A stretch of 64,000 bases of DNA from an uncultured Chloroflexia bacterium (GCA_963797855.1 CAWCQX010000003.1:10642-74641), one strand, 5' to 3'; positions 42,243 through 50,987 are shown, counted from the first letter of the stretch. Notes: a model not told the origin generated them from the letters alone. Numbers and translations: made by a program.

Positions 42243-42542
42243 TCAGTACGTGTGGCGGCGGGCCATCTCGCGCTCGATCATCCGCTCCATGACCATGTAC
42301 TTCTCGATCCGTCGCCGGAGCTCGTTCGCCTCGGGCGTGTAGAGATGGACGTACTGCTGGAGCTCGAGGCTGAGCTTGCGGCTGAACATGCGGGCGTGGT
42401 CGAGATTGCGACGCAGGAGGACCTGGTCCATGCGGCGGAGATGCTCCTCGTTGAGGAGGTCCTCGTCGCGGAGCAGCTCGCGATCGGCATCCAGCTGGGT
42501 GCGCTGGAGCTGGACCGGGGTGATGAGCGTTTCGTCGGCCAT
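42243..42542 (-). CDS. Hypothetical all-helical charged protein (99 aa)
   Basis: MADETLITPVQLQRTQLDADRELLRDEDLLNEEHLRRMDQVLLRRNLDHARMFSRKLSLELQQYVHLYTPEANELRRRIEKYMVMERMIEREMARRHTY. Starts 13 nt after the response-regulator stop on the same strand. No family recognised. Confidence 0.55.
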   Translation of the reverse strand: MADETLITPVQLQRTQLDADRELLRDEDLLNEEHLRRMDQVLLRRNLDHARMFSRKLSLELQQYVHLYTPEANELRRRIEKYMVMERMIEREMARRHTY

Positions 42543-43012: not shown

Positions 43013-43089
43013 GTCCCCGTAGCTCAGTGGATCAGAGCAGCCGCCTTCTAAGCGGCCGGTCGCAGGTTCGAATCCTGCCGGGGACGCCA
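43013..43089 (+). tRNA. tRNA-Arg (anticodon UCU), CCA encoded
   Basis: GTCCCCG acceptor stem pairs with CGGGGAC. D-arm TAGCTCAGTGGATCAGAGC. Anticodon stem GCCGC/GCGGC with loop CTTCTAA. T-arm GGTTCGAATCC. Ends in GCCA. Confidence 0.9.
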
Positions 43090-43100
43090 CCTCCCCGCGC

Positions 43101-44315
43101 TCAGCCTCCGAGCCTCTCGATCGCATCGGCGGCCTCGTCGAGACCGCGCTCCTTCTCGAGCTCGCTCGCCAGGGCGCCAGCACGCTGGCGCATGGCCGGA
43201 TCGGCGGCGCTGGCGAGGGCCGCCGAGGCCAGGCGCTCGGCCTGCAGACCGCGCACGGGCTGGGGCTCCGGCGCGACTCCGAGCCGCCGAAGCCGATCGG
43301 CCCAGTAGGGCTGGTCACCGACATGCGGAATCACGAGCGACGGAACGCCGGCCGCGACGACGGCGTGGGTCGTTCCCGAGCCGCCGTGATGCACGACGAG
43401 CGCCGCGCGCGGGAAGAGCGCGCGGTGGTCGACCGCACCGATGCGGATCAGGCCGGGCGAGGTGACGCCCGCGGCGATCGATCCCTGGACGACGACCCGA
43501 CGACCGCTCTCGAGGATCGCTCGCACGGCGCCGTCAATCGCCGCCTCCGACGCGCCGGCCATCGAGCCGAAGCCGATGACGATCGGGGCGGCACCATCGG
43601 CAAGAAAGGCCTCCAGCTCCGATGGCAGCGGAGACACGGGACGGTCGTCGAGCCAGGCGCCCGTGACGAGCGTGCCCGCCGGCAGGTCGGGAGGCACCCG
43701 GATGATCGCCGGAGAGCACGCGAGGAGATGGAGCCGCGGCGAGCGAGCGCGGAAGAGCGGCAGGCCACGCTGCGCACTCCCGGCGCGCGCCAGGACGCCG
43801 TCGACGGGGCGCCCGACCCGCGCGAGGATCCGGTCGAGCATCCACCACGCGGGCCGGTTCAGCGGACCGAGCGGGGGCAGGCCCGGTGGAGGCGCGCTGC
43901 GCGTCGGCAGCAGGACCGGGTCGAACACCGCCGTGGCGAACGCCAGCCCGGCGTCGAGGACCGCGGCGTGCGCGAGGACGTGAATGCCATGGACGACGAC
44001 GACGTCGTGACCCGGCAGCAGCGTCCTCAGCCGCCGATAGTGGTCCTCGCCGTCCGCGATGTGGAAGTCGCGAAGGATGGCGACCTGCTGGAGCGGTGGC
44101 CGCCCGGCGACGTCCGCCGCGACGGCGGCGATCCGACCGGCGTCTGCATGCGGGCCGGCGACCTCGACCCGCACGCCCGCCTCCGAGAGCGCGGCGCGAT
44201 GGACCGGCCAGCTGATCGCCGTCACCTCGTGGCCGCGGGCGACGAGCCGCCGGGCGAGCAGCACGAACGGCGCAACGTCCCCGGTGGTGCCGACCGTCGC
44301 CAGCGCGATCCGCAT
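43101..44315 (-). CDS. GT1-family (MGT/UGT-type) glycosyltransferase
   Basis: 404-aa intact ORF. MRIALATVGTTGDVAPFVLLARRL and the C-terminal donor-binding motif VVHHGGSGTTHAVVAAGVPSLVIPHVGDQPYWA. Confidence 0.8.
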   Translation of the reverse strand: MRIALATVGTTGDVAPFVLLARRLVARGHEVTAISWPVHRAALSEAGVRVEVAGPHADAGRIAAVAADVAGRPPLQQVAILRDFHIADGEDHYRRLRTLLPGHDVVVVHGIHVLAHAAVLDAGLAFATAVFDPVLLPTRSAPPPGLPPLGPLNRPAWWMLDRILARVGRPVDGVLARAGSAQRGLPLFRARSPRLHLLACSPAIIRVPPDLPAGTLVTGAWLDDRPVSPLPSELEAFLADGAAPIVIGFGSMAGASEAAIDGAVRAILESGRRVVVQGSIAAGVTSPGLIRIGAVDHRALFPRAALVVHHGGSGTTHAVVAAGVPSLVIPHVGDQPYWADRLRRLGVAPEPQPVRGLQAERLASAALASAADPAMRQRAGALASELEKERGLDEAADAIERLGG

Positions 44316-44318
44316 CGG

Positions 44319-45212
44319 TCAGATGGCGGCGATGCTGCGCGGCGCCAGGCGCGGGCCGTACCGCGGCGCGACGATCCCTCCGACCTCCAGCAGCCGCTGC
44401 ACGCGGCCGCGCTGGCCGCGGTATGGCTCGAGCAGCTCGAGCATGCGAGCGTCGTCGGCGCGCGGCTCGCCCGCGAGCGCCCAGGCGACCGTGTTCGGGA
44501 TGTGGAAGTCGCCGACGCTCACGGCGTCGGGGTCGCCGAAGGCGCAGCGAACGACCTCCGCGGCGGTCCACGCACCGATGCCGGGAAGCGACCGCAGCCG
44601 GGCCGTCGCTTCGGCCGCGGAGCCCGCCGCATCCAGCCACGCGGCCCGCGCCGCTGCGCGGCGGATGACCTCGGCGCGCCGCCGCTCGACGCCGAACGGG
44701 TGGAAGGCGTGATACGGCAGGCCGGCCAGCGTGGCCGGAGCCGGCGGGAGGTGCAGGTCGCCGGGTCCGGGGGCGGGCTCGCCGTGGTGGCGCAGCAGAG
44801 CCGCATACGCGCGGAACGCCTCGGTGCCGGTCACCTTCTGCTCGAGGACCGATGGCAGCAGCGCGTGGAAGACCCGGCGGGTCTGCGGCAGGCGCAGCCC
44901 GGGGTTCTCGCGCTGGAGACGGCGGAGGATCGGGTGGACGGCGGTGAACGCCTCGGGCCGATCCTCCTCGCCGACGAGGAGCGGCGCTCCGTCGAGGGCG
45001 TGCTCGGCGCCCGGACCCCAGGCGGACGCATCGAGCCGCATCGGCGACGAGTGCCGCAGGCGGAGCGTGGCCGGTCCGTCCGGCGTGCGGAAGGCGAGCC
45101 ACGCCTCGCCGCGGGCGAGACGGATCGTGCGATCGCCGCGACCGTGGGCCAGCGGCCCGAGCGTGGCCGGGAGGTCGAGCGGGCCGCGCAGGTCGAGCCC
45201 GCGCTCGATCAC
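44319..45212 (-). CDS. HhH-GPD superfamily DNA glycosylase-like protein (AlkA/3-methyladenine glycosylase II-like)
   Basis: GTG 45212 overlaps the upstream stop (GTGA). HhH-GPD motif LRSLPGIGAWTAAEVVRCAFGDPDAVSVGDFH. The earlier part of ORF 44319-45587 is out-of-frame read-through of the upstream gene. Confidence 0.7.
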   Translation of the reverse strand: MIERGLDLRGPLDLPATLGPLAHGRGDRTIRLARGEAWLAFRTPDGPATLRLRHSSPMRLDASAWGPGAEHALDGAPLLVGEEDRPEAFTAVHPILRRLQRENPGLRLPQTRRVFHALLPSVLEQKVTGTEAFRAYAALLRHHGEPAPGPGDLHLPPAPATLAGLPYHAFHPFGVERRRAEVIRRAAARAAWLDAAGSAAEATARLRSLPGIGAWTAAEVVRCAFGDPDAVSVGDFHIPNTVAWALAGEPRADDARMLELLEPYRGQRGRVQRLLEVGGIVAPRYGPRLAPRSIAAI

Positions 45213-46210
45213 CGGCGCATCGAGAGGAGGAGCGGAGTCGGGCCGGCCTGGGCGGCCTCGAACTCGGATCGGCTGCGCAGGCCCCGGTATCCCTCGGCGA
45301 CGGCGATCTGCGCGCAGGCCGTCCCCAGCGAGCCGCCCGGCCCGGGAAGGAGCACGACGTCGGGCGCGTATTCGCGGAGCGCGAGCCGCAGGCTGGTCGC
45401 GAAGTCGTACGTGGTGCCGCCCTGCCCGCGCAGCGAGAGCTCGGCCAGCTCGTCCGGATCGGTCGACCACGGCGTGAACCGGACCCCTCGCCCGTCGATG
45501 AGGGTCACGTTCGGCCGATCCCAGCGCAGGTCGCCGAGCCGGCTCGCCGCCTCCTCCGCGGCCGCCGCGCGAAGGGGGGTATGCCACGCGTCCGCGCTGG
45601 CGAGGCGAAGTGGATAGTCCCGATCCGCGATCTGCACGGGTTGCAGGCGTCCCGCGAGCGAGTCGATGCCGTCCGAGGTCCCGGCGATCACCGCGAACGG
45701 GCCGAGATCGATCGCGACGGCGGTGCCTCCGTTGGTCTCGCCGAGCGCGTCGCTCAGACCCTCGATGCGCGCCTGGGCCGGCTGCCAGGCCTCATCGGTG
45801 AGCGGGTAGATGAGCTCCGCCGGCGCCGAATCGCCCTGGAGCGGTGCCTCGGCGGCGGCCGCCATCTCCTGCACGAGCCGGAAGGCGTCGTCGAATCCGA
45901 GGGCGCCCGAGGCGGCGAGCGCGGTATACCAGCCCGTCGAGTTCGCGACCACGACGACCACCTCGTGGTCATCGGCGATGCGCTCCGCGTCGAGGAGGCT
46001 GCACAGGAAGACGAGCGGCCAGGCATTCGACGGCCGCAGGTGCACGCTCGGGTCGAAGCGTTCGGCGCCGTCGATCTCCGCGAGCGGCTGAAGGCCGGCG
46101 GCCGCACGCAGCTCGTCTGCGCGGCGCACCCACGGATGGCCGGACGGCAGCGAGCCCAGGGAGGGCGGCCCGTACGAGCCCCGGCCGGGAAAGGCGACCG
46201 CTGCGCGCAT
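45209..46210 (-). CDS. FabD/malonyl-CoA:ACP-transacylase-fold acyltransferase-like protein
   Basis: ATG 46210 overlaps the E1 stop (TGATG). MRAAVAFPGRGSY resembles FPGQGSQ, and the nucleophile elbow VVANSTGWYTALAASGAL resembles GHSLGE. The rest is divergent. Confidence 0.6.
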   Translation of the reverse strand: MRAAVAFPGRGSYGPPSLGSLPSGHPWVRRADELRAAAGLQPLAEIDGAERFDPSVHLRPSNAWPLVFLCSLLDAERIADDHEVVVVVANSTGWYTALAASGALGFDDAFRLVQEMAAAAEAPLQGDSAPAELIYPLTDEAWQPAQARIEGLSDALGETNGGTAVAIDLGPFAVIAGTSDGIDSLAGRLQPVQIADRDYPLRLASADAWHTPLRAAAAEEAASRLGDLRWDRPNVTLIDGRGVRFTPWSTDPDELAELSLRGQGGTTYDFATSLRLALREYAPDVVLLPGPGGSLGTACAQIAVAEGYRGLRSRSEFEAAQAGPTPLLLSMRR

Positions 46211-48474
46211 CACGTTCGCGACGCCGCGTGCTTGCGCCTGCCCACCGCGGCAACCGCGGCCGCGACGACCTGGTCGACGCCAACGAGCACGGCCGCCGTC
46301 GCGGGACCGAGCGGCACGAACGAGTCGACCGCCCGGACCGAGGCGAGACGCTTCGCGATCTTGTGCTCGGCGAGGTCCGCGATGATCGCGTCGGCCACCC
46401 CGCCGCCGGTCGCGCGACACTCGTCGACGACGACCACGGTGCCGATGCCCTTGGCCTGCGCCCGAATCGCCTCCGTCGGCAGCGGGTTGAGCCATCGGAC
46501 ATCGATGACGCGAGCCCGCAGGTCGTGCTCGTCGGCGAGGCGTTTCGCCGCCTGGAGGCTGAGCCGAAGGCCGTTGGCGTAGCTGATCAGCAGCAGATCG
46601 TCCGCATCGGTCTCGTTGTGGAGGCCGATCTCGCCGGGAAGCAGCACCTCGGGCGGAGCGGGGTAGGTCGTGAGCCATCCCTCGTCGCCGTCGGCGTGGA
46701 GGTCCTTCTCGTGGTAGAGGGCGATCGGCTCGAGGAAGACGACGACGCGGCCGTCCTCGGCCGCCATGGCGATCGCGCCGCGGAGCATGCGGGCGGCATC
46801 GTCGCCGCGCGCCGGCGCGGCCAGCACCAGGCCGGGAATGTCCCGCAGCGCCCCGACGCTGTTGTCGTTGTGGAAGTGGCCGCCGAACCCCTTCTGGTAC
46901 GCGAGACCGGGCACGCGCACGACCATCGGGTTGCGGAACTGGCCGGAGCTGAAGAACTGGAGCGTGGCGGCCTCGCCGCGAAGCTGGTCGATCGCGTTGT
47001 GGACGTAGGCGAGGTACTGGATCTCGGGCACGGGGAGCAGGCCGATGTGGGCCGCGCCCTCGGCGATCCCGAGGATGCTCGTCTCGTCGAGGAGCGTGTC
47101 GAAGACGCGCGCCGGGCCGAATCGCCGCTGCAGCCCGTTCGTGACGTTGTAGACGCCGCCCTTTCGCCCGACGTCCTCGCCGAAGACGAGCAGCTCCGGC
47201 CGCCGGAGGAGCTCGTCGGCCAGGGCGGCGTTGATCGCCCCCGCCAGCGTGCGGGCGTTCGGGGTTCCGGCCGTCTCCGGCAGCGCGCCGCCGAACGACG
47301 CGGACCGCTCCTCGGGCGTCGCCACGGGCGCTCCCGCGCGCTCCCGGACCCGATCGGCGTGGTAGGGAGCCATCGGTGCGACGACCTCCTCGGTCGTCTG
47401 GAGCTGCGGACGCCGCGCCGCCTCTTCGGCGACGGCCATGACTCGCTCCCGCGTCTCACGGACGAGGTCCCGCAGCTCGTCCGGCGTTGCCGCGCCGAGC
47501 TCGACCAGGCGCCGCGCGTTGCGCACGAGCGGGTCGCGTGCCTCGACCTCCTCGATCTGCGGGATCGACCGATAGGTCGGCTCGGCATCGCTGCCGGCGT
47601 GCCCCCACAGCCGCACCGTCCGCAGGTGGAGGAAGACGGGCTGGCGCGCGCCGCGGACGTGGGCGATCGCCGTCTCGACGGCGGTCCACGTTTCGTCGAG
47701 CTCACCGTCGGCCGCGATGTAGCGGAGGTGGGGCATGCCACCGAACGTGGACTCGATCCAGCCCTCTGGCGTCGGCACGCTGATGCCGGTGCCGTTGTCC
47801 TCGCAGACGAGCAGCAGGGGCATCGGCAACCCCATGCGCACGGCGTAGCGCGCCGTGTTGATCGCGGCGAGGGCGGTGGCGTGGTTCGCGCTCGCGTCGC
47901 CGAACGAGCAGACGACGACGGCGTCCTCCGGCAGGTCGATCCCGACGCCGATGCGCTTCGCGCGGGCCAGGCTGAAGGCGAGGCCCATCGCCTTCGGCAG
48001 GTGGCTCGCGATCGTGCTCGTCTGGGGCGGGATCCACAGCGGCCGGCTGCCCCACACCTTGTGGCGGCCCTGGGCGATCGGGTCCTCGCTCGAGGCGACG
48101 ATCCCGAGCAGCGTATCGAGCGTCGGCGTGGTGCCGGCGCGCTGGCGGGAACGGGCCATGACGAACCCGCCCGAGCGGTAGTGCAGGAACGCCGGGTCGT
48201 CCGTGCGCAGCTGTGCGCCGATGATCGCGTTGTCCTCGTGCCCGGCCGAGCTGATCGTGTAGAAGCTGCGGGCGGTCTTCTTCAGCTCGCGGGCAGCGAC
48301 GTCGATCTGCCTCGAGGCGAGCTGGTCCTCGAACAGCGCCACCGCGGCGGCGGCCGTGAGGGTGGTCCCGGGGTGGAGGGCCGCGTGCGGGGCAAGGGGA
48401 CTCCCGGCCGGCTCCGCGCCGGCGAGGTACGTATCGAGACGGTTTTCGACGATCGCGACGCGATCCCAGGTCAT
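46210..48474 (-). CDS. Fused alpha/beta E1-type thiamine-diphosphate-dependent 2-oxoacid dehydrogenase component
   Basis: 754-aa intact ORF. TPP motif FGDASANHATALAAINTARYAVRMGLPMPLLLVCEDNG in the N-terminal half; E1-beta-like FGEDVGRKGGVYNVTNGL...FDTLLDETSILGIAEGAA in the C-terminal half. Confidence 0.85.
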   Translation of the reverse strand: MTWDRVAIVENRLDTYLAGAEPAGSPLAPHAALHPGTTLTAAAAVALFEDQLASRQIDVAARELKKTARSFYTISSAGHEDNAIIGAQLRTDDPAFLHYRSGGFVMARSRQRAGTTPTLDTLLGIVASSEDPIAQGRHKVWGSRPLWIPPQTSTIASHLPKAMGLAFSLARAKRIGVGIDLPEDAVVVCSFGDASANHATALAAINTARYAVRMGLPMPLLLVCEDNGTGISVPTPEGWIESTFGGMPHLRYIAADGELDETWTAVETAIAHVRGARQPVFLHLRTVRLWGHAGSDAEPTYRSIPQIEEVEARDPLVRNARRLVELGAATPDELRDLVRETRERVMAVAEEAARRPQLQTTEEVVAPMAPYHADRVRERAGAPVATPEERSASFGGALPETAGTPNARTLAGAINAALADELLRRPELLVFGEDVGRKGGVYNVTNGLQRRFGPARVFDTLLDETSILGIAEGAAHIGLLPVPEIQYLAYVHNAIDQLRGEAATLQFFSSGQFRNPMVVRVPGLAYQKGFGGHFHNDNSVGALRDIPGLVLAAPARGDDAARMLRGAIAMAAEDGRVVVFLEPIALYHEKDLHADGDEGWLTTYPAPPEVLLPGEIGLHNETDADDLLLISYANGLRLSLQAAKRLADEHDLRARVIDVRWLNPLPTEAIRAQAKGIGTVVVVDECRATGGGVADAIIADLAEHKIAKRLASVRAVDSFVPLGPATAAVLVGVDQVVAAAVAAVGRRKHAASRT

Positions 48475-48534
48475 TGGACAGGTCCGGCTTGGGTGGCGTG
48501 GGGCTCGGGGGCGCGCTCATGATAGCGCCGCGGG

Positions 48535-48741
48535 TCACAGGAACGTCAGGAGGGCCCGAAGTCGCGGGAAGTCTCCGCCGCCGGTGGACGCGGCGGTGGC
48601 GGCGGCCAGCAGCAGCTGGGCCGCGAGCGCCGCGATCGGCGACCAGATGAGCCAGATGCGGAGTCGACGCGGATGCACGGGCGGAACCTCGTACGGTGCG
48701 CCGTCGCCGGGCCGCGCCCGCGTCCTGGCGCATCGCCGCAT
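48535..48741 (-). CDS. Possible small single-TM protein (68 aa)
   Basis: ATG 48741 with GGAG 4 nt upstream. High third-position GC. Hydrophobic core LRIWLIWSPIAALAAQLLLAAATAAS. Sits 60 nt upstream of the E1 gene. No homology recognised. Confidence 0.35.
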   Translation of the reverse strand: MRRCARTRARPGDGAPYEVPPVHPRRLRIWLIWSPIAALAAQLLLAAATAASTGGGDFPRLRALLTFL

Positions 48742-48753
48742 GGGACTCCGTCA

Positions 48754-48783
48754 CCGCTTACCAGCCGCTTACGCGCGGCTTAC
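48754..48783. promoter_or_regulatory. Three helically phased direct repeats (CCGCTTAC / CCGCTTAC / CGGCTTAC, 11-bp period)
   Basis: The GCTTAC cores start at 48756, 48767 and 48778. They lie between the EamA stop (48792) and the small ORF/E1 operon start. Candidate binding array for a transcription factor. Confidence 0.4.
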
Positions 48784-48791
48784 CGGCCCGC

Positions 48792-49628
48792 TCACCCGCC
48801 GACGGAGATGAGGACAATCCCGAGGAGCGCGAGGGCCACCCCGACCAACCCGACGGCCGGTAGTCGCTCACCGATCACGAACCGGGCGAGGAGCATCGTG
48901 ACGACGGGGTAGAGGCCGACGATCGCGGCGGCCAGCCCGATCGGGATCGCGTCCCGCGCGAGCACGAAGAAGATGTTGCCGCCGACATCGAGAAGCCCGG
49001 CGGCGACGAGGAGCGCCCAGGGAATCGCAGACCGATCGATGCCGCGCGCGACCACGACGACCGTCGCGATGCCGGCGGAAGCCGCACGGCTGAAGACAAG
49101 GGCCCAGAGGGAGTCGCCCGCGGACGCGGCGAGGTCGATCAGGACGTACCACGCGCCGAACGCGAGGGCCGCCAGCCCGGCGAGGGCCAGCGCTCGGCGC
49201 CCGAGCTCATCCCGCGATGCCCCGCTGGCTGCAGCGGCCGCCGCGGCCGCGCACGCGACGCCGACGAGCTGGAGGGGACCAACGGGCTGGCCGCGCAGGG
49301 CGCCGACCGCCAGCGGCAGGACGAGGGAGCCGGCGCCGGCGACCGCGGTCACGATCCCCATGCTGCCGACGGCCATGCCGCGATACAGGGCGGCGAGGCC
49401 GACCATGCCGGCGACACCCGCCGCCGTCGCGATGGCGATCGCATCGGCCCCCGGCACCGGCGGCCGGACGACGGCCAGGGCCACGAGGAGCGCGACGAGA
49501 CCGATGCCGTGTGCGCCGGCGACGGCCAGCAGCGCCCCGGCGCGCCGAGCTGCCGATGCACCGGCGAAATCGCCGCCACCGAAGGAGAGCGCGCCGAGGA
49601 GGCCGGAGACGACGCCGGTCGAGAGCAT
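48792..49628 (-). CDS. EamA/DMT-family transporter
   Basis: 278-aa intact ORF with ~10 hydrophobic segments and a two-repeat DMT architecture (…LYRGMAVGSMGIVTAV… / …IVGLYPVVTMLLARFVIGERL…). Confidence 0.75.
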   Translation of the reverse strand: MLSTGVVSGLLGALSFGGGDFAGASAARRAGALLAVAGAHGIGLVALLVALAVVRPPVPGADAIAIATAAGVAGMVGLAALYRGMAVGSMGIVTAVAGAGSLVLPLAVGALRGQPVGPLQLVGVACAAAAAAAASGASRDELGRRALALAGLAALAFGAWYVLIDLAASAGDSLWALVFSRAASAGIATVVVVARGIDRSAIPWALLVAAGLLDVGGNIFFVLARDAIPIGLAAAIVGLYPVVTMLLARFVIGERLPAVGLVGVALALLGIVLISVGG

Positions 49629-49867: not shown

Positions 49868-50987
49868 GTGGCGGTCGAATCCAACCAGCCGGGGAGGGCG
49901 ACGCTGGGAGTCGAGGAAGCGCCGCCAGCCGTGCGCCTCGAGGGGGTCACGAAGCGCTTCGGTGACGTCGCCGCCGTCGCGGGCATCGATCTCGAGATCG
50001 CCGACGGCGAGTTCTTCAGCATGCTCGGGCCGTCAGGGTCCGGAAAGACGACGACCCTTCGGATGATCGCCGGATTCGAGGTCCCGACCGAGGGCTCGAT
50101 CCAGCTCCACGGACGTGACGTGACCGGCGTGCCGCCGTTCGACCGTGACATCAACACCGTCTTCCAGGACTACGCCCTCTTCCCGCACATGACCGTCGGC
50201 GACAACGTCGCCTACGGCCTGGTGGTGCGTGGGGTCGCCGAAGTCGGAGCGCAACACGCGGGTCACCGAGGCGATGCGCATGGTGCGTCTCGAGGGATAC
50301 GAGGCGCGCCGCCCGGGCCAGCTGTCAGGCGGTCAGCGGCAGCGGGTCGCGTTGGCGCGCGCGCTGGTGAACCGCCCGCGCGTGCTGCTGCTGGACGAGC
50401 CGCTCGGCGCCCTCGACCTGAAGCTGCGCGAGGAGATGCAGATCGAGCTCAAGGCGATCCAGGCGCAGGTGGGCATCACGTTCATCTACGTGACCCACGA
50501 CCAGGAGGAGGCGCTCACGATGAGCAACCGCCTGGCGGTCTTCAACCTCGGATCCATCGAGCAGATCGGGACGCCCGCAGATGTCTACGAGCATCCCGCC
50601 ACGACCTTCGTGGCGGGGTTCGTCGGGACGTCGAACCTCCTCACGGGAGACTCCGCACGAGCGGTCATTGGCGAGGACGGAGTCTTCACCGTCCGTCCGG
50701 AGAAGATCCGGATCGCCCAACCGGACGTGGAGCCAGCACCGGACGAGGGCTCTGCCCTCGGCACGATTCGAGAGGTCGTCTACATCGGACCGGACACGAG
50801 ATTCTTCGTGGCGCTGGACACGGGTGGGGAGCTCGTCGTCATGCGCCAGAACCAGGAAACCCTGTCGATGGAGGCGCTTGCGGCGCAGGGCCAGCGGGTC
50901 CGGCTGCTCTGGAAGCGTCGCCATGTGCTGAGCCTCGCCACGAGCGAGGACCCAATGGGGGACGCGGAGGAAGAGACGAATCCATGA
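49868..50987 (+). pseudogene. ABC transporter ATP-binding protein, PotA-like; frame broken at ~50235
   Basis: Walker [10 protein letters not shown] in ORF 49868-52150. After AYGLVVRG the protein continues in ORF 50229-50987: [40 protein letters not shown]. Confidence 0.85.

Follow-up and report, generated by a model that had tools for sequence, protein, structure and literature searches.

In this work, we show that four tightly coupled genes on a 64,000-nucleotide stretch of DNA from an uncultured bacterium filed under Chloroflexia (GCA_963797855.1, CAWCQX010000003.1:10642-74641; the whole stretch is called the window below) form a real operon, conserved in one family of soil Chloroflexota. 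The first two genes encode a fused alpha/beta E1-type enzyme dependent on thiamine diphosphate (TPP) and an acyltransferase with the FabD fold, and they constitute a two-gene module that is kept across at least six phyla. They are followed by genes for an AlkA-type HhH-GPD glycosylase and for a GT1 glycosyltransferase. We think it rather probable that the operon is a composite of three layers, namely the E1-acyltransferase module, an AlkA-type repair enzyme and an optional GT1 tail gene. The glycosylase and the glycosyltransferase are lineage-specific additions and probably not steps of one pathway. The appearance of the quartet as a pathway is probably an illusion produced by operon accretion.

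The four-gene operon and its E1-acyltransferase module

The source names of close homologues place the window in Candidatus Limnocylindria, a class of soil Chloroflexota. All four genes lie on the minus strand and are intact, as a preliminary description of this DNA had claimed. Counted from the first letter of the window, the open reading frames (ORFs) are those of the E1 enzyme (48474..46210, 754 amino acids), the acyltransferase (46210..45209, 333 amino acids), the glycosylase (45212..44319, 297 amino acids, with a GTG start) and the glycosyltransferase (44315..43101, 404 amino acids). The junctions are also as first described: in TGATG the TGA stop of E1 (46212-46210) and the ATG of the acyltransferase have one base in common, the acyltransferase stop and the glycosylase start overlap by 4 nt as GTGA (45212-45209), and 3 nt separate the glycosylase from the glycosyltransferase (44318-44316). 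The GC content at third codon positions is about 0.9 in the frames of all four genes, and comparison with the closest relatives gave ratios of nonsynonymous to synonymous substitution rates (dN/dS) of 0.10-0.19 for each of them, that is, purifying selection. The four enzyme identities proposed earlier were likewise borne out by domain calls, folds and motifs, the latter being FPGRGSY and ANSTG in the acyltransferase, LPGIGAWTAAE...VGDFH in the glycosylase and HHGGSGTT...GDQ in the glycosyltransferase.

We surveyed 201 genomes of the class, 67 of them from the family of the source genome (f1) and 134 from other families, including the sister family f3. The acyltransferase gene was found after E1 in 61 of the 67 f1 genomes and in none of the 134 others. 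Within f1, 49 genomes carry the glycosylase, which by its coordinates directly follows the acyltransferase in all 49. The glycosyltransferase is rarer (22 of the 67 f1 genomes, in six genera, and none of the 134 elsewhere); it directly follows the glycosylase in 21 genomes, and the remaining copy lies at a contig edge. The preliminary description had named a lack of synteny elsewhere as an outcome that would refute it, but the quartet recurs in the same order in most of the genomes searched from its own genus and in dozens of related genomes overall, and the junctions in f1 are mostly overlaps of 4 nt or 1 nt or gaps of a few nucleotides. Since the arrangement recurs in dozens of relatives and all four genes are under purifying selection, it is more than a product of chance.

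The linkage extends much further for the first two genes than for the last two. We scanned bacteria and archaea, with one genome per species, and kept the best 80 of about 600 acyltransferase matches. In 79 of these 80 loci a fused E1 gene lies directly upstream on the same strand, and the two genes overlap by 4 nt in 59 of 77 loci. The loci come from Limnocylindria, Planctomycetota, Acidobacteriota, Bdellovibrionota, Myxococcota, Alphaproteobacteria and Gammaproteobacteria, and they include cultured Halomonas relatives, Ruegeria and Rheinheimera. Such a nearly absolute pairing, together with the overlap, suggests a one-to-one partnership between E1 and acyltransferase. Between clades the identity is 46-49% for E1 and 33-37% for the acyltransferase. 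All-against-all clustering of the flanking ORFs of the 80 loci recovered no third conserved gene beside the pair other than shadow ORFs. The neighbours, assigned with Pfam at 20 loci, vary and have unrelated functions, among them LysR regulators, acyl-CoA dehydrogenases, an HglS-like gene, aminotransferases and kinases. The sole locus of the 80 with no E1 match within 7 kb upstream of the acyltransferase homologue is L081, from a Planctomycetota metagenome-assembled genome (MAG).

The E1 protein matches the Pfam families E1_dh, Transket_pyr and Transketolase_C at 80.1, 73.4 and 58.9 bits (cut-offs of 22, 27 and 25.9, respectively). Its best matches in the PDB are E1 beta chains (about 1e-40), and the alpha chains of the branched-chain 2-oxo acid dehydrogenase (BCKDH) of T. 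thermophilus and human are matched at 1e-17 to 1e-14. It has the same three domains as the heterotetrameric (alpha2beta2) E1 enzymes of BCKDH and pyruvate dehydrogenase (PDH), represented by 1UM9 (T. thermophilus), 1DTW (human BCKDH) and 1W85 (G. stearothermophilus PDH), and shares with them the TPP/Mg motif, the activating Glu and both histidines of lipoamide acylation. Unlike those two-chain enzymes, however, it has alpha and beta fused in a single protein, and all its NCBIfam equivalog scores fall far below cut-off. The TPP/Mg element GDA(S)xNH...CEDN, which corresponds to GDG...NN, does not vary among 65 homologues drawn from several phyla, and neither do H292 (in WGHAGSD), E464 (in DTLLDE) and H535 (in GGHFHNDNS). 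In the human BCKDH alpha chain the residue aligned with H292 is His291; H535 we take, by motif comparison, to be the lipoamide histidine of the beta half. Because the TPP/Mg motif, the Glu and the two histidines are invariant, the enzyme looks fully competent, including for the acylation of a dithiol acceptor.

The genes for BCKDH and PDH E1 usually lie beside those for a lipoyl-E2 and an E3, whereas the E1 studied here has neither beside it and its constant partner is the FabD-fold acyltransferase. The earlier remark that no E2 lies near E1 agrees with our searches of the 143-kb contig to which the window belongs, in which E2 (PF00198), lipoyl (PF00364) and acyl carrier protein (ACP; PF00550) domains gave zero matches. 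E2 genes are present elsewhere in all 25 genomes searched (the source genome and 24 relatives from the class), and genes with lipoyl/biotinyl domains (PF00364) occur on other contigs. As a side observation, the E2 catalytic domain at G000:C12:90063-90707 and in relatives lies, within the genus, in an open frame of about 1200 amino acids, which recalls the actinobacterial E2-E1o fusion of the OdhA/Kgd type.

The acyltransferase has no match in Pfam, Acyl_transf_1 included, and its NCBIfam matches are weak (MdcH at 1e-10 and FabD at 2e-7), both far below cut-off; the fabD model TIGR00128 scores 30.5 bits against a cut-off of 260.9. The AlphaFold2 (AF2) model is confident (predicted local distance difference test score, pLDDT, of 94.7), and its top Foldseek matches are FabD, also known as MCAT, and the acyltransferase (AT) domains of polyketide synthases (PKSs), with template modelling (TM) scores of 0.72-0.83. 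The two-subdomain fold, the Ser elbow and the catalytic His are shared with these enzymes (E. coli 1MLA, V. cholerae 3HJV): the family has Ser91 and His210 without exception, and they align with Ser92 and His201 of FabD. The identity to them is only 17-22%, however, the elbow GHSxG of FabD is replaced by GNSMG in the family and by ANSTG here, no ACP gene lies nearby, and Met and Arg stand where FabD has Arg117 and Gln11, respectively. As Arg117 is replaced by Met, malonyl is unlikely to be the substrate. An exhaustive search of 1.84 billion representatives delimited a small and distinct family of 441 clusters (E <= 0.001) with the consensus PGRGSY...GNSMGWYTAL...GGQxxYP...HxAFHTPL...IDGRG...LGPG. 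Judged from alignment and modelled fold, the protein is classed as a FabD-fold serine enzyme of a family without a described member. A patatin-like reading of the PGRGSY, GNSMG and DGRG motifs was considered and dropped, the alignment and the fold placing the protein with FabD.

For the first layer of the operon, we propose that the fused TPP enzyme decarboxylates a 2-oxo acid and that the acyltransferase would take over the resulting acyl group as an acyl-O-Ser intermediate, handing it to coenzyme A (CoA) or to another thiol. The acyltransferase would thereby do the job performed by the E2 core in classical complexes. The acyl donor might be acyl-TPP itself or else the borrowed lipoyl arm of an E2 whose gene lies at another place in the genome. 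An acyl group unlike malonyl would agree with the lack of the malonyl-binding Arg in the acyltransferase. The novelty of the locus sits in this pair, the four-gene combination being a lineage-specific variant around it. Such a pair, with apparently intact E1 chemistry, with no adjacent E2, E3 or ACP gene and nearly universal in an abundant uncultured family of soil Chloroflexota, makes a rewarding target, as solving its reaction would add a new route from 2-oxo acids to acyl thioesters and assign a function to the gene pair.

The glycosylase and the glycosyltransferase

The third gene of the operon encodes a protein whose sequence and profile matches in the PDB are 3-methyladenine glycosylases alone. 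It matches the NCBIfam AlkA model at 8e-11. Its family-model scores stay below cut-off, with 18 bits for HhH-GPD (PF00730, cut-off 26.2) and 42 for PRK10308 (cut-off 229), and some close homologues do carry the PF00730 call. The AF2 model (pLDDT 88.8) superposes over its full length on AlkA of E. coli and A. fulgidus with TM scores of 0.74-0.79. The top Foldseek matches, 1MPG, 3OH6 and 2JHJ, cover about 290 columns and comprise the N-terminal beta-sheet domain and the two-lobe HhH-GPD fold, so that the complete three-domain architecture of AlkA is shared. All 24 sequences compared have D235 of the VGDFH motif, which falls on the GD of the B. halodurans structure 2H56 in the alignment. Trp215 occupies the position of AlkA Trp218, and as in AlkA the HhH motif has Trp where bifunctional enzymes carry Lys. 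The differences from AlkA lie in an identity of about 20%, in the surroundings of the catalytic Asp, which is found in PDDY in AlkA and in VGDFH here, and in the translational coupling to a metabolic gene pair.

The distribution of this gene in the class bears directly on its role. Outside f1 the glycosylase was found in 53 genomes, all of family f3 and all without the E1-acyltransferase pair. The f3 orthologues keep the catalytic Asp and are 51-63% identical to the query, against 57-66% for the other f1 genera. In a maximum likelihood tree, the stand-alone f3 glycosylases intermingle with the operon-linked ones, with short internal branches and no separate deep clade. The operon-linked protein is thus the same orthologue as the stand-alone copy, and we argue that it therefore has the same job, base excision repair. 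Fold, profile and tree suggest that it is probably the ordinary monofunctional base-excision enzyme of the lineage. The preliminary description had named a grouping with housekeeping AlkA as an outcome that would speak against a pathway role for the glycosylase, and such a grouping is what we found, as far as computation allows. In f3 the glycosylase has as neighbours cofC, cofD and cofE (F420 biosynthesis), luciferase-like monooxygenases and an M23 peptidase. In loci L024, L026 and L027 the genes cofE, cofC and cofD adjoin the glycosylase and at two other f3 loci luciferase-like genes do so, probably as plain synteny.

A DNA glycosylase gene amid metabolic genes brings to mind the self-resistance glycosylases AlkZ (azinomycin) and YtkR2 (yatakemycin). 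These have other folds, HTH_42 and AlkD-like, respectively, and sit inside large clusters of PKS and nonribosomal peptide synthetase (NRPS) genes. In contrast, the 143-kb contig studied here holds no PKS, NRPS or PP-binding carrier gene.

The glycosyltransferase matches the Pfam families EryCIII-like_C (PF06722, 52 bits) and Glyco_transf_28 (PF03033, 28.4 bits), both above cut-off; its NCBIfam match to Rgt-like enzymes (5e-31) is below it. In the PDB it matches GtfA, GtfB and GtfD as well as a sterol 3-beta-glucosyltransferase at 1e-29 to 1e-31, over the full length for GtfB and GtfD. We therefore class it by its sequence as a GT1 (GT-B) uridine diphosphate (UDP)-glycosyltransferase of the Gtf/MGT/sterol-glucosyltransferase kind. 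With GtfA, GtfB, GtfD, the sterol 3-beta-glucosyltransferase 5GL5 and the rifamycin glycosyltransferase Rgt it shares the GT-B architecture and the C-terminal nucleotide-sugar motif. It differs from them in falling below every NCBIfam cut-off and in being confined to the 3' end of this operon in a single family.

In the composite reading that we favour, the glycosylase gene would have become the next gene after the pair in the ancestor of one family and would now be co-transcribed and translationally coupled with it, while acting on DNA and not on the product of the E1-acyltransferase pair. The glycosyltransferase, kept in about one-third of the family, would be an optional tail gene. The variation within f1 is illustrated by the genus g16, which has kept the pair and lacks the glycosylase, and by genome G042, in which the glycosylase is a pseudogene. 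The preliminary description had noted that these four enzymes do not make up a standard pathway. A reading of them as one unusual pathway is only partly supported: the tight coupling and the synteny of the quartet stand, but the linkage breaks up into layers of which the glycosylase and the glycosyltransferase are lineage-specific. The case also carries a caution, namely that genes tightly coupled in translation and syntenic across a family need not, on that evidence alone, share a function.

Alternative explanations

Other readings join the four genes by function. One of them holds that all four make a single small glycosylated acyl metabolite, in which the HhH-GPD protein provides self-resistance against a genotoxic product or a base- or nucleotide-modifying step. 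The recurrence of the four-gene order in six f1 genera with tight junctions, the purifying selection on all four genes and the confinement of the glycosyltransferase to the operon are in agreement with it. Nevertheless, the pair occurs without the glycosylase and the glycosyltransferase in every other phylum and in g16, the f3 glycosylase does without the other three genes and forms no clade of its own, and the glycosyltransferase is missing from two-thirds of the operons. Considering also the lack of PKS, NRPS and carrier genes on the contig and the different folds of AlkZ and YtkR2, we regard this reading as very unlikely. Among the three options of the preliminary description, neither a metabolite pathway with a self-resistance glycosylase nor a base- or nucleotide-modifying pathway is supported; fortuitous co-transcription is, for the glycosylase, the best fit of the three. 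A milder form of functional linkage would be damage control, in which a reactive carbonyl or an alkylating by-product arises from the reaction of the pair or from its substrate, the glycosylase repairs the damaged bases and the glycosyltransferase detoxifies a related molecule. The translational coupling of glycosylase and acyltransferase across the family and the strict association of the f1 glycosylase with the pair would be expected in that case, but outside this phylum the pair comes without a linked glycosylase, g16 lost the glycosylase while keeping the pair, and the flanking genes are equally syntenic, which leaves damage control improbable in our judgement. A broader combination has a somewhat better, though still small, chance of being correct: the E1 and the FabD-fold acyltransferase would represent an undescribed architecture of 2-oxo acid oxidation, in which the acyltransferase replaces the E2 core, whether or not it borrows a lipoyl arm, and the Limnocylindria module would in addition have recruited the glycosylase and the GT1 enzyme as functional partners, for example in damage control.

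The reaction of the pair itself can also be read in other ways. It may convert 2-oxoadipate to glutaryl-CoA in lysine breakdown, a step for which our full-text literature searches found no named bacterial gene. Several neighbours of the pair point in this direction, including a Rheinheimera gene directly beside it that matches human glutaryl-CoA dehydrogenase at 8e-186, gcdH homologues of 53-54% identity that adjoin it in two Bdellovibrionota loci, a gene of the HglS family (2-oxoadipate dioxygenase/decarboxylase) behind it in Motiliproteus, and LysR regulators adjoining it in Billgrantia (a Halomonas relative) and Ruegeria. However, gcdH is adjacent in just 3 of the 80 loci, nothing among the neighbours of the pair in Planctomycetota and Limnocylindria hints at lysine, and, with the identities between clades given above, the substrate may differ by clade. 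In this lineage the idea is unsupported, because none of the 61 family genomes has a canonical gcdH (the best matches are 32-36% identical); for the pair as a whole we consider it unlikely. It is also conceivable that the E1 is an ordinary one, docking on an E2/E3 core from another locus, and that the FabD-like protein is unrelated to it, for instance a thioesterase or an acyl hydrolase. The invariance of both lipoamide-directed histidines, the E2 genes found elsewhere in 25 of 25 genomes and the PF00364 genes on other contigs are all compatible with such docking. On the other hand, the nearly absolute pairing and the 4-nt overlap across phyla point to a one-to-one physical or functional partnership, and we attach a low probability to an unrelated FabD-like protein, about as low as to damage control.

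Several observations weigh against the composite reading that we prefer. In f1 the glycosylase was never found apart from the pair, which could reflect selection for co-expression, and in most genera of the family it joins the acyltransferase by an overlap of 4 nt or 1 nt or across a gap of 3 nt. The glycosyltransferase, in turn, was found nowhere in the class but behind the glycosylase. For the acyltransferase, the genus of the source genome has lost residues that are nearly invariant in the family (G89A and M92T, which turn GNSMG into ANSTG, GGQ130-132 replaced by PAE, and H206A), and for this reason its activity in the genus may have changed; the substitutions hint at a genus-specific change of specificity. 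To these points are added the source MAG, which is 55% complete (with about 72% GC), and the literature, in which full-text searches retrieved no paper describing a fused E1 and a FabD-like enzyme as a pair. Nonetheless, the acyltransferase of the genus keeps Ser91 and His210 and has a dN/dS of about 0.1. As for the fixed place of the glycosylase, the EamA gene upstream of the operon and the gene for a 99-amino-acid protein downstream of it are positionally as conserved in the family as the glycosylase is; since the whole neighbourhood is syntenic, that fixed place does not rise above the background.

Upstream region and neighbouring genes

The region between E1 and the EamA gene contains three elements on the minus strand that may be related to the expression of the operon. 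Some 45 nt before E1 begins, the block GGCGCTATCATG (48519..48530), with a possible -10 box TATCAT, is kept in nine intergenic regions of the same genus, and a promoter role of this block is possible. Next to it lies a small ORF of 47 amino acids (48535..48678), which encodes a hydrophobic helix followed by an invariant T/S-GGGDFP. In the nine genus members the peptide is kept while the third codon positions vary, and for that reason the ORF looks like a real small membrane peptide; the operon possibly begins with it. Upstream of both the small ORF and the operon, GGTAAGC occurs three times at 11-bp phasing (48754..48783) in 9 of 9 aligned genus members, and these repeats are a likely operator site. 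A consensus scan, with sigma-70 for the promoters, revealed no promoter or terminator on the operon strand, although such a scan says little for Chloroflexota, and an Rfam scan recovered a tRNA alone and no riboswitch or other RNA element. Contigs from soil metatranscriptomes with 95-99% identity cover parts of E1 and of the acyltransferase, one of them spanning their junction. This cover is sparse, comes from relatives and may include DNA carry-over, and over the glycosylase and the glycosyltransferase it is too thin to judge.

The neighbours of the quartet include a transporter, an ABC system and a response regulator. The transporter, of the EamA family (48792..49628, minus strand; Pfam EamA 3e-16), lies 317 nt upstream of E1 in the same direction and is a conserved neighbour in the family alone. 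It was found upstream of E1 in 25 of the 33 Limnocylindria loci examined, that is, in nearly all loci that hold that side, and the comparison of neighbours between loci showed it there in no phylum other than that of Limnocylindria. Further upstream, an ABC transporter ATPase gene (49868-50987, plus strand) is split into two frames in the window and forms one frame in relatives, as a result either of an assembly indel error or of recent pseudogenization. The frame breaks that the preliminary description had reported elsewhere in the window are genuine. At the other end, a convergent tRNA-Arg(TCT) gene on the plus strand (43013..43089; found with ARAGORN, and scoring 71.6 bits for the Rfam tRNA model) closes the operon 12 nt past the stop of the glycosyltransferase. 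An anti-phage defence system was considered and rejected, as PADLOC gave no defence-system match for any of the four proteins.

The 99-amino-acid protein mentioned above is charged and is encoded at 42243-42542 on the minus strand, after a gene for a CheY-like receiver. Its identity, 93-98% across the genus and 77-88% across the family, is far above that of its neighbours. In operons that have neither the glycosylase nor the glycosyltransferase, its gene lies almost directly behind that of the acyltransferase.

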